NCBI GenBank assembly: GCA_965243835.1 | Contig: OZ251578.1 | Coordinates: 2,464,303 to 2,528,302, forward strand | Direction: 5' to 3' | Length of the DNA stretch: 64,000 nucleotides | Source: Candidatus Spongiisociaceae bacterium | Lineage (GTDB): Bacteria > Actinomycetota > Acidimicrobiia > Spongiisociales > Spongiisociaceae | Part shown: positions 40,729 through 43,456 of the stretch, piece by piece | How the letters are laid out: each line of letters opens with the position of its first letter | Numbering within the stretch: position 1 is the first letter of the stretch | The notes under the pieces: generated by a model | What the model was told of the DNA's origin: nothing | The model's database searches: none | Seen by the model: the letters and a program-made list of their open reading frames with translations, nothing else | Position numbers and translations under genes: made by a program

Positions 40729-43456
40729 TCAGGAGTCGAATGCCTGCTGGGAGGGCCCGCCGGCTTTGGCGGCTTCCAACAACAGGCTGTTCCACGCCGC
40801 TACCAGCGAGTTGTAGGCCACCGCATCCTCGGTGCGTCCGGCGGCATTGGCCGCCTCATACAACAAATACGACAGGCGGCGGGCGTAATCCCCAAACCCG
40901 CCCATCCTCGCCAACAACTCCCCCGCCCTCGCCTCCGACATATCCAAACGCGCCACCAAGTGCTGGGTCAACTCCCAAACGGTCGACTTCCAATCCTCGG
41001 CCGGGTCCCACTTCGGATCCAACTCCTCCCGGGTCAGCAACCGCACTTGGCCGCCCTTGGACTCCGCCACCCCCGCCTCCGCCACGCCAGCCACCGACGT
41101 GTTCATCGCCTTGGCCAACGTCTCCGCATCCCCGAACGGACCCGGGTCGTGACCGAACTGACGGTACCAGGTCAGGGCGAACCGGCTTTCGGAGTCCAAC
41201 TCGGCCTCCTCCTCCGACCCGATATCCTCCAACACCTTGTTGATCAGGGCAAGCGCGGTGCGCACCCGCATCGTGTCCCCGTTGGCCTCCACCACCCGCC
41301 GATACCGGGAGAATATCCGCATCCCCGGCCCGATAGCCGCCTGCGCCATATCCACCGGCGGAATAGCCTGCTCCTGCAACAACCCCACCGCCGCCGGCAA
41401 CTCGGAGCGCAACGCCTCCAAAAACCCGCCTCGCGTCTCCAACAAGGCATCATCCGCCCGCGGCCGACAAGCCAACACCACCGACGACGCCAACGCGGCG
41501 TTTCCGATAGCCACCATCCTGTTTCCCATTTCGGTCCGGATCGGCCAAGTGGCGCTCACCTGCAATCCTGAATCAACCAGACCCTGCAGGAAAGTCTCCC
41601 AACCGGTAGAGGAAACATCCCCATCCTTAGATTCTTGTTGCTTGTAAGCGTAAAAGACAGTGGCGGGAAACTCGGGGTGATGAACCCGCGCTATCTGCTC
41701 CATAACTTTCGTCATCCCCGCTTCAAAATGTTCCTGCGCCGCCTCCTTGGAACCGGCCCGGTATTGATGAGCTACCAACTCTTCCTTTTTGGGCGTAACG
41801 AGGGTTGCGCACTCATCCGGCCACACTTCGGATAAGTTACGACGTAACCACACGTAGAAAAAATCAGAGATATCCGCATATTGAATATTATCATAATAAG
41901 GGGGATCAGTACAAATCACAGGCTTATCAATTTCCCTCAAACGGGCTACCGCATCCCTCTGCAAAACTTCGCCGCTACGCGAAGCAGGCAAGCTCGCAAC
42001 CGCTTTCACTACCCAATCCACTTGCCCCAACCAATTGCCCGTAGACGAGGAAAATGGATTCGCTTCAGCAAAATCCCAAACCATGGGTATAGATTGCCGT
42101 ACTAAGGTATGTGATACTAATTCCCTAGTGCCTTCCCAAGTAGCAATAACAGACCATTTATCAACGCACCGATCAATAACAAAAGCCAGATATGTAATCA
42201 AGGCCTCCGCGTATGCAATTAACCCGGATCCTCCCTCTCGTAATTGGTCTTCCTCGTCAGATAGCCCTGCAATACTCGCATCGGATATCACCTGCTTGCG
42301 CACATTATCCAGCAAATCAGAGAAGGTAGTTAGCGCAATCATCTGGCGATCAGTAAACAAGGAGTCGGTAGTTTCCATTCCGTAAAGCGGGGTCTGAAAA
42401 TTGCGCGGGTTATTTGCGAGTCTAACCGACGGTACTTTATCGGGCAAGTCTAGTTTTGGAATATCAGTATCGCTAGAGTGATATAGGCGCTTCCGTTCCC
42501 CCTCAGATACAATCCCTACCGGCATCACCCCCAGCTTTCCCTGTTTGCCCTGCTCCCGGATATATTTGAAAGTAATAGGAGCGCCGGTTGCTACGCAGAC
42601 GCCGCCACCTCGGCCAATGGTACCCGTATTCGGGGTTCCGCCCTCCCTCACCTTAAACATCACGATTGGAGCATCACGGTCTACAACCGGCTCCGCCCAC
42701 ACCACCGGTTTACCCGGCCTGTTACGCAATATCCCGGACTTGAGCAGGGGCACATGACCCTTCCACGACGGGTCCGGGGATAGGACGGTTCTAGCCCACA
42801 ACCAGGCAATCACCGTCTTGTCATCGACCCGGGGATATAAATGACCGATACGCTCCCGCGCCCGGTCCCGCATCCACTCTCCGTAATAACGAATATCCTC
42901 CGCCAAACCCTGCGACCCCCGCCATGTCTTCAAACCCGAATCCGCGCGGCTCCTCGGATTCACCGGAGGCCGTCCCGCAAACCGCGGCGGTATCTCCACC
43001 ATCGCCTTGGTTATCAGAACCGCAACCGGATTCAGGTCACCCCCGTACGCCGGCAACCCTAATTGCTGAGCGGCCAGGGGGCCTACCCCCCCCCCCGGAG
43101 AAGGGGTCTAATACGTTGGGCAAGTCATCCCCGCACGACGCCCTAATCTCCGCCCGCGCTTCCGCCAACACCTCCCGGTCATTACCGCCCTCCCATGCCG
43201 CCAAACGTTCCAAAATACCGAACAGTCGTTTGCGTTCCGTCTTTTGGTCCTCCGCCGTCGGGAACCGGTCCGGATGAGCGGACGGATCATCCACCAAAGA
43301 CGACCACAACACGGCCCGCACCGCCGCCAAGGGACGGCGCGCCCACCACAGATGCAACGTGGACGGATGACCGTGCCGAATGGACTTCTCCCGCGCCGAC
43401 TCCCGGCTGATCGTATCCAGCGGCAGGGATACCTCGATCAACTTCGTTTTGGCCAT
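40729..43456 (-). CDS. DUF1156-family DNA methyltransferase (motif I DPFSGGG, motif IV DPPY), interrupted by a +1 frameshift in an 11-nt poly-G tract
   Basis: N-terminal ORF 43037..43456 ([42 protein letters not shown]...DPFSGGGG) and main ORF 40729..43056 (DLNPVAVLI...ICTDPPYY) are contiguous if the G11 run at 43086-43096 were G10. Confidence 0.8.
43086..43096 (-). repeat. Homopolymeric G11 (C11 on plus) tract inside the DUF1156 methyltransferase ORF
   Basis: Read directly. Sits at the methyltransferase motif I glycine codons. Confidence 0.9.

Follow-up and report, generated by a model that had tools for sequence, protein, structure and literature searches.

When a DNA methyltransferase gene is broken into two reading frames at a run of eleven guanines, is the gene dead, is the sequence record wrong, or is the run a switch? 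This question is raised by a locus in a 64,000-nucleotide stretch of contig OZ251578.1 from a Candidatus Spongiisociaceae bacterium (Acidimicrobiia; assembly GCA_965243835.1), and this whole stretch is referred to as “the window” in the following. The gene encodes a DUF1156 methyltransferase of the HmaB family, and the G tract (G11) falls within its motif I. From comparisons of sequences we consider it quite probable that the tract is a slipped-strand contingency locus, acting as an ON/OFF switch of an orphan HmaB methyltransferase. Such a switch had been proposed in a first-pass annotation of the window, and it is now supported by the variation of tract length among orthologs, by the one-step repair of broken alleles, by the ratios of nonsynonymous to synonymous substitution (dN/dS), and by repeats of other kinds in sister alleles.

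The methyltransferase gene and its G tract

Pfam DUF1156 (PF06634) matches residues 11 to 81 of the protein (E = 3.7e-30, 72 of 73 profile positions). When the protein is repaired to G10, the PADLOC profile for HmaB, “DNA-adenine methylase” (PDLC00660), matches it end to end (E = 1.1e-303, residues 3-903 aligned to profile positions 8-961 of 967), with the match spanning the insert between motif I and motif IV as well as the C-terminal helical domains. Both the S-adenosylmethionine (SAM)-binding motif I (DPFxGGG) and the catalytic motif IV (DPPY) were found in the gene, and no nuclease domain was detected in the protein using Pfam and PADLOC profiles. A PDB sequence search with the methyltransferase returned no homolog, and a promoter and terminator scan of the gene gave nothing informative. 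By these matches the gene is that of a DUF1156/HmaB N6-adenine DNA methyltransferase, with its enzyme activity being predicted.

The G11 tract occupies codons 121 to 124, in the Gly codons of motif I (DPFSGGG), and the frames and translations bear out the earlier claim that the tract splits the methyltransferase at this motif (coordinates in Table 1). The N-terminal fragment consists of the DUF1156 helical domain and DPFS, followed by an out-of-frame tail up to the stop codon, and an identical 139-aa product is already present in public protein records. The remainder, in the +1 frame, holds the rest of motif I, the GGDLNPV motif, an insert resembling a target recognition domain, DPPY and the C-terminal helical domains; the family sequence does run through DPPY to the C-terminus, as had been described. 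Deletion of a single G yields one 908-aa open reading frame (ORF), while G13 would give 909 aa and G7 907 aa, so that the intact ORF at G10 is as predicted, its length having been estimated earlier at about 909 aa. Motif I is kept in a single frame at G10, G13 or G7 only. Both G11 and G12 are out of frame, and at G12 a TAG codon directly follows the tract. We are thus dealing with a perfect non-triplet repeat within an ORF whose length sets the reading frame, which is the criterion by which phase-variable genes with simple sequence repeats (SSRs) are recognised.

The first ATG 3′ of the tract (M152) lies after both motif I and GGDLNPV, and therefore a product initiated there would be without the SAM-binding motifs. 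Gene callers annotate the downstream part as a 757-aa protein starting at M152 (P0279 and P0001, in a cluster of at least 90% identity), and in current annotation pipelines such genes end up as two entries, one called “DUF1156 protein” and the other a 757-aa ORF without annotation. A split enzyme made of two pieces was also considered; it was rejected because the break is within the SAM-binding loop and because the first downstream ATG lies beyond GGDLNPV.

Tract length and selection among relatives

Homologs were searched for with the repaired protein as the query, and DNA was fetched for part of the truncated ones. Of the 30 closest homolog clusters, about 20 lack the N-terminal part with the DUF1156 domain and are 753-793 aa long. 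Scanning the GTDB species representatives yielded 56 loci, with one close relative (L031) among them and the others serving as a distant-family control. The JGI metagenomes, scanned with the conserved DNA 5′ of the tract (TGCCCAAYGTNTTAGAYCCNTT), gave only a chance match in an unrelated AT-rich gene (L062), and therefore the tract clade is not in that metagenome collection. Apart from a Ca. Spongiisociaceae metagenome-assembled genome, the close relatives are all on ENA scaffolds labelled PANK22-1, which we take to be sponge metagenomes.

The G run lies at the same codon position in nine relatives, all or nearly all of them from sponge metagenomes and with about 70-99% protein identity to the window, at lengths of 10, 11, 12 and 15. 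Four strains of one 90%-identity cluster, represented by the window, L001, P0283 and P0280, have G11, G12, G12 and G11, respectively, where the last two lengths were deduced from protein products (that of P0283 ends in DPFSGGGG). Over 14.3 kb, L001 matches the window at 97.8% identity, with no uncompensated coding indel between them other than the tract. A repeat length that differs between close strains with conserved flanks is another criterion for a phase-variable gene. Alleles that are in frame also exist, one verified at the DNA level (L061) and others recognised from protein sequences (P0004-5). The first-pass annotation had suggested a comparison of orthologous loci, and in this comparison tract length varies among relatives and the disruption is not uniform. 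At L031, an ISL3-family transposase gene (7416-8762, minus strand) lies inside the G15-bearing hmaB, which is a truly inactivated copy.

One alternative raised earlier was a fixed pseudogene, i.e., a decaying gene inactivated by a single frameshift. This would be consistent with the out-of-frame state of the window and its nearest strains and with the lack of HmaA and HmaC partners, and the L031 copy, with G15 and a transposase, shows that true death occurs. However, each of the ten out-of-frame alleles (the window, seven G-tract relatives and two with other repeats) is converted to a single ORF of 908-934 aa by one change in repeat length, with zero second lesions. Over the 28 pairs of G-tract alleles, Nei-Gojobori dN/dS is 0.07-0.29 for the N-terminal part and 0.08-0.23 for the C-terminal part, with synonymous divergence (dS) ranging from 0.07 to 1.56; purifying selection is thus seen on both sides of the tract even at dS above 1. 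In addition, the size of the frame offset is not the same in all alleles, so that one ancestral frameshift does not account for them, and in-frame alleles exist, as mentioned above. With one-step repair of all split alleles tested and dN/dS this low, the pseudogene alternative is effectively refuted, and we regard it as very improbable.

The tract itself is also kept at the synonymous level, again in disagreement with decay. All three motif-I Gly codons are GGG in eight of eight G-tract alleles, as compared to 33% of the codons in 45 other conserved Gly columns, only 2 of which are all-GGG. In 45 distant homologs, the longest G run in motif I is 2-6. The family consensus, DPFCGGG[TA]IPLE, is replaced by, e.g., DPFCGGGGGPLE in the tract clade, and the G run is longer in this clade because the two residues following GGG became GG or VG. 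As judged from these alleles, the G tract has outlasted synonymous saturation with both halves of the gene under purifying selection, and the best explanation would be that selection in this lineage has preserved a switch at motif I and not merely the gene.

A second alternative is an error of assembly or sequencing in the window record, the true tract being G10 and the gene intact. In long-read consensus sequences, the errors that remain are mainly in long homopolymers; the window apparently comes from a single-contig genome, and both of its 11-mers are in frame at a length of 10. The window has two G/C runs of 11, none of 9 or 10, and four of 8; the runs of 7-8 nt sit in ORFs of at least 100 codons, and a frame break is visible at none of them, which is weak evidence against a general homopolymer-error problem. 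Independent metagenome assemblies in the same 90%-identity cluster are also out of frame (G12 in L001 and P0283, G11 in P0280), as are more distant relatives with tracts of 10-12, and several sister alleles are broken by repeats that are not homopolymers. We consider such an error quite unlikely; a wrong call in the window would, in any case, leave the tract and its variability in place. Of the sequencing-error alternative offered in the first-pass annotation, the general form is unlikely, since the broken frame recurs in scaffold-level metagenome assemblies and in two single-contig genomes, and what is left is a possible miscall of the exact length in this one record.

Repeats upstream of motif I and neighbouring genes

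The linker between EARAEI and VLDPF has 27-29 residues in most homologs; several sister alleles have a perfect non-triplet repeat in it (Table 1). In-frame products show the matching peptide periodicities, namely TQHNT, PTQPN, SNPIQ (x3), THTH(TH), RERE(RE) and SLSL, and out-of-frame counterparts were found as well (P0226, which ends in QQLMIT, and P0194). Because di-, penta- and decanucleotide repeats escape homopolymer miscalls, homopolymer sequencing error cannot explain this pattern. We think that these linker repeats are the strongest evidence of selection for switchability, as far as sequences can tell.

The same alleles are relevant to a third alternative, recoding, which could replace DNA-level switching or be added to it, and in which RNA polymerase slippage on the G tract (or a ribosome shift) would allow out-of-frame alleles to yield some full-length enzyme, so that the tract would tune its level rather than being a binary switch. 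Transcriptional slippage on homopolymers of at least 9 can restore the frame of shifted genes; the best evidence for this is from A/T runs, and slippage on G/C runs is reported to be weaker. Recoding would account for the fact that most of the sampled G-tract alleles, including those of all four same-species strains, are out of frame while both halves of the gene are under strong purifying selection. On the other hand, the alleles are offset by +1, +2 and -1, which misfits a fixed programmed ribosomal frameshift signal, and the TAG directly after the tract at G12 is likewise unfavourable. Furthermore, sister alleles are broken by 2-, 5- and 10-nt repeats and have in-frame versions too, as DNA-level switching predicts, and we know of no efficient correction of 2-, 5- or 10-nt repeats by RNA slippage. 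Recoding therefore seems unlikely to us as an explanation for the tract, and slipped-strand switching is retained as the preferred one.

Paralogs and allele exchange were noted in the clade. In a Ca. Spongiisociaceae metagenome-assembled genome (OZ241841.1; L065 1888-10271), there are three tandem hmaB paralogs, one of them without a repeat, and the window’s genome has a second split hmaB paralog elsewhere (P0052, from the protein record). A comparison of L059 with the window (40716-43047) shows 95-96% identity in the flanks as opposed to only 81% in the methyltransferase body, and L059 has no HNH gene; the contrast between flank and body points, therefore, to an exchange of diverged alleles by recombination at one chromosomal locus.

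In the window, the methyltransferase gene is placed between an M81 peptidase (MlrC) gene and a DUF222-HNH gene, and its surroundings are metabolic, with genes for electron transfer flavoprotein (ETF) subunits and a GFO/IDH oxidoreductase also nearby. Its GC content at third codon positions (GC3) is 0.65, as compared to 0.83-0.89 in the neighbours. Neither HmaA nor HmaC was seen near the window gene, using Pfam and the ORF map, or in 12 related loci, and the gene does not qualify as a member of an Hma system. There are no defence partners within about 6 kb of the window gene and no helicase- or ATPase-sized ORF nearby. In contrast, distant homologs (45-50% identity) have HmaC, a DUF499 ATPase, directly downstream and in some cases a helicase upstream, with HmaA confirmed only at L042. 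As it is without partners, located among metabolic genes and lower in GC3, the window gene is an orphan HmaB gene that was probably acquired. Scans of IMG/VR with the methyltransferase protein and with the Coriobacteriia-type tract pattern gave no match, and hence no evidence of phage origin.

The DUF222-HNH gene has an ortholog 3′ of the methyltransferase gene in L001, L002, L065, L068 and, as a fragment, L063, i.e., in at least three genome contexts, and is absent at L059, L060, L061, L064 and L066. Its divergence roughly tracks that of the methyltransferase (97/86/79/70% identity to the window copy). It may be a mobile gene that accompanies the methyltransferase, or it may work together with it.

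Table 1. Features of the methyltransferase locus in the window, repeat alleles of relatives, and DUF222-HNH genes.
Feature or locus	Position	Strand	Repeat	Protein identity to window	Frame or description
G11 homopolymer (C11 on plus strand)	43086-43096	minus (coding)	G11		proposed slippage site; motif-I codons GGG GGG GGG G(G)
Motif I, DPFSGGG	43108-43088				
DPFS alone	43108-43097				
N-terminal fragment ORF at G11	43037-43456	minus			ATG 43456, starts MAKTKLIEV; 139 aa; stop 43037-43039
Pfam DUF1156 match	43426-43214				
Methyltransferase remainder	40729-43095	minus			+1 frame; 788 codons; stop 40729-40731
GGDLNPV	43044-43024				
First ATG 3′ of tract (M152)	43002				
Motif IV, DPPY	41907-41896				
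DUF222 + HNH endonuclease gene	39063-40415	minus			downstream of methyltransferase; Pfam DUF222 E 1.1e-16, HNH E 1.5e-7
DUF222-HNH ortholog, L001	8638-9939				
DUF222-HNH ortholog, L002	3767-5149				
DUF222-HNH ortholog, L065	11063-12367				
DUF222-HNH ortholog, L068	9353-10645				
L001			G12	99%	+2
L002			G11	85%	+1
L060			G12	78%	+1
L063			G12	75%	+1
L064			G10	74%	-1
L061			G11	73%	in frame, 908 aa
L066			G11	70%	-1
L031			G15		+1; also cut by ISL3 transposase
L059			(CGTTACCGAG)x6, 10-mer		OFF; in frame at 1, 4 or 7 copies
L065, paralog 1 of 3			(CAACA)x12		ON, 929 aa
L065, paralog 3 of 3			(AC)x12		OFF, 117 + 756 aa
L067			(TC)13.5		ON
L068			(CAACC)11.8		ON

Other repeats in the window were also recorded. 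The second 11-mer is a C11 on the minus strand (62075-62085), located 4 codons after the ATG (62098) of a gene (60130-62098, minus strand) that encodes a multi-pass membrane protein without a Pfam match and has 37% GC. With C11, translation would stop after 13 codons, and with C10 there would be a 655-aa ORF; the source genome’s product for this gene is a 574-aa truncation (P0241, 100% identical), and some homologs of the membrane protein have Pro runs near the N-terminus (P0247 and P0269). This C11 is possibly a second contingency locus. The gene is overlapped by a low-GC island (60001-62000, 37% as compared to 64.5% in the window), which was probably acquired horizontally. A 23-nt unit (ATTACAGCACCATACGCACACCC) is repeated 7.5 times with 94% identity at 63626-63798, just 5′ of a DUF4143/AAA_14 ATPase gene (62298-63599, minus strand). 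Finally, between the ETF-alpha and MlrC genes (45440-46560) there are 4-5 paralogous segments of about 170-190 bp that are 84-90% identical; in L001, these segments have small ORFs (56-101 aa) on the opposite strand, with no Pfam match.

Proposed switching, wider occurrence and known systems

We propose that the tract would work as follows: slipped-strand mispairing during replication would add or remove G’s, and these changes would be reversible on short time scales; at G10, G13 or G7 the gene would be ON, with the full enzyme (908 aa at G10) being made and presumably methylating DNA; at G11 the gene would be OFF, with the frame lost in the SAM-binding loop and a stop reached after 139 aa; at G12 it would likewise be OFF, with the TAG ending translation at once after the tract; and, because the downstream frame has no ATG until M152, past motif I and GGDLNPV, no active enzyme would be expected in the OFF states. 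In sister alleles, non-triplet repeats of other kinds would have arisen independently, in the variable linker that directly precedes motif I. Cells that carry one particular adenine methylation pattern would then coexist in a symbiont population with cells that lack it, and candidate roles for such a mixture include regulation at the epigenetic level, the evasion or decoying of phage and restriction, and the toggling of a restriction-modification-like pair formed with the HNH gene.

Several observations weigh against slipped-strand switching. Length variation is known from comparisons of strains and lineages rather than from reads, and switching within a population, as well as its reversibility, is what we infer from it. 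The G-tract alleles sampled are mostly OFF, with about 3 in-frame clusters (P0003-5) vs about 17-20 truncated ones; if one third were in frame, the binomial probability of 3 or fewer of 20 would be 0.06, although some loci were picked because they were truncated, which bears on this excess. All four same-species strains are OFF as well, at 11 or 12. Such an excess could reflect an advantage of the OFF state, or some residual decoding of “OFF” alleles. The exactness of 11 as opposed to 10 in the window record is uncertain, and the enzyme activity and the methylated target are predictions. Within the window alone, moreover, G11 falls inside the chance expectation. The GC content of the window is 64.5%, not the 70% given in the first-pass annotation for the genome, whose description of the gene is otherwise right in all particulars, and a model with independent and identically distributed bases predicts 0.40 G/C runs of at least 11. 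Dinucleotide-preserving shuffles gave 2.61 ± 2.42 G11 matches, with at least two matches in 63 of 100 shuffles; the earlier caution that chance could give an 11-mer was well placed, as the tract is not statistically unusual in the window. In our judgement the comparative data support a switch, but the term “phasevarion”, in the sense of a regulon, would go beyond what the sequence supports.

Signs of the same arrangement were seen outside the clade. When the first 123 residues were used as the query, about 45 of 120 N-terminal fragments were found to leave the frame right after the motif-I Gly, in both alternative frames; this count was made by eye, in a list biased to short proteins, with frames read from proteins. 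The fragments include those from Thermophilibacter sp. (P0164), Mobiluncus mulieris (P0237) and gut-assembly clusters (P0172, P0180 and P0181). For example, P0172 reads ...GGGCHTPRGSALRA and P0181 reads ...GGVPYPSRLSA, and the in-frame P0173 reads ...GGGAIPLEAQRLGLKA. This suggests that a motif-I G tract recurs in other host-associated Actinomycetota. Tentatively, orphan HmaB methyltransferases might even be a class of epigenetic switches with phase variation that has so far gone unrecognised in host-associated, non-pathogenic Actinomycetota; we would call this possible, though rather doubtful at present. The support for such a class would be direct for the sponge Acidimicrobiia, whereas for the gut Coriobacteriia and Mobiluncus it comes via the frames of protein fragments only.

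Phase-variable methyltransferases have been seen as a hallmark of host-adapted pathogens with small genomes; the catalogued ones belong to Type I and Type III systems, with pglX as one actinobacterial example from BREX. If our interpretation is true, it would extend them to DUF1156/HmaB, a relative of the BREX (bacteriophage exclusion) methyltransferases, and to mutualistic sponge symbionts with high-GC genomes. It would also add a case in which selection for switchability can be seen, as at least eight types of repeat were gained convergently at one site. Under the more tentative idea of a whole class of switches, the linker/motif-I segment would be a hot spot that has captured repeats again and again, namely G(n), AC, TC and AG along with several 5-mers and one 10-mer; tandem paralogs, such as the three in L065, would give combinatorial methylomes; and, in a stronger version, the HNH nuclease would rely on the methyltransferase for its targets, as Type III Res does on Mod, with the repeat toggling a minimal two-gene restriction-modification module. 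The mechanism is a known one, and the enzyme family and the host group are new; the interest lies in the convergent repeat hot spot and in the symbiont setting. Metagenomes can be searched for such switches by a simple rule, which is to look for DUF1156 N-terminal fragments whose frame is lost at motif I, and the locus offers a target for methylome and read-level studies of uncultured symbionts.

In the literature searched, neither repeats nor phase variation turned up for DUF1156/HmaB enzymes, and nothing of the kind did for sponge symbionts. DUF1156 methyltransferases are related to those of type-3 BREX, and the Hma system, a DUF499-centred BREX-related type 1 system, consists of a helicase-nuclease (HmaA), a methylase (HmaB) and an ATPase (HmaC) (bioRxiv 10.1101/2025.10.09.681413). 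The window protein resembles this system in being a full-length HmaB, with distant homologs in the canonical HmaB-HmaC arrangement, but differs in that the repeat-clade gene is solitary or, in L065, tandemly triplicated.

The phasevarions of Haemophilus, Neisseria, Helicobacter, Streptococcus suis and Actinobacillus (Type III mod and Type I hsdM/hsdS genes) are similar in that an SSR within the ORF gives ON/OFF expression and in that different alleles have different repeats; their restriction partner is often inactive or absent. Surveys of REBASE for phase-variable methyltransferases apply the same repeat-in-ORF criterion (PMC5909438, PMC7383803). These are, however, Type I and III systems of host-adapted pathogens, whereas the window gene is a DUF1156/HmaB gene of sponge-symbiont Acidimicrobiia known from genes alone. 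In Campylobacter jejuni, a poly-G tract in cj0031, a large single-chain enzyme containing an adenine methyltransferase, switches site-specific methylation (PMC4889913), but this pathogen has a low GC content and, unlike the window gene, cj0031 includes an endonuclease domain as part of a Type IIG fusion.

The nearest precedent is the G tract of pglX in the Pgl (phage growth limitation; type 2 BREX) system of Streptomyces coelicolor, which expands and contracts and thereby turns the phenotype on and off at 1e-2 to 1e-4 (PMC4365076, citing Sumby & Smith 2003). In pglX, too, the repeat is poly-G and lies within the ORF of an N6-adenine methyltransferase; the enzyme belongs to the BREX-related superfamily, and its host is an actinobacterium of high GC. 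PglX belongs to another methyltransferase family and works with PglW/Y/Z, in contrast to the window’s DUF1156/HmaB enzyme, which has no such defence partners within about 6 kb. A further difference from pglX is that, across the alleles of the HmaB clade, many repeat types share one site.

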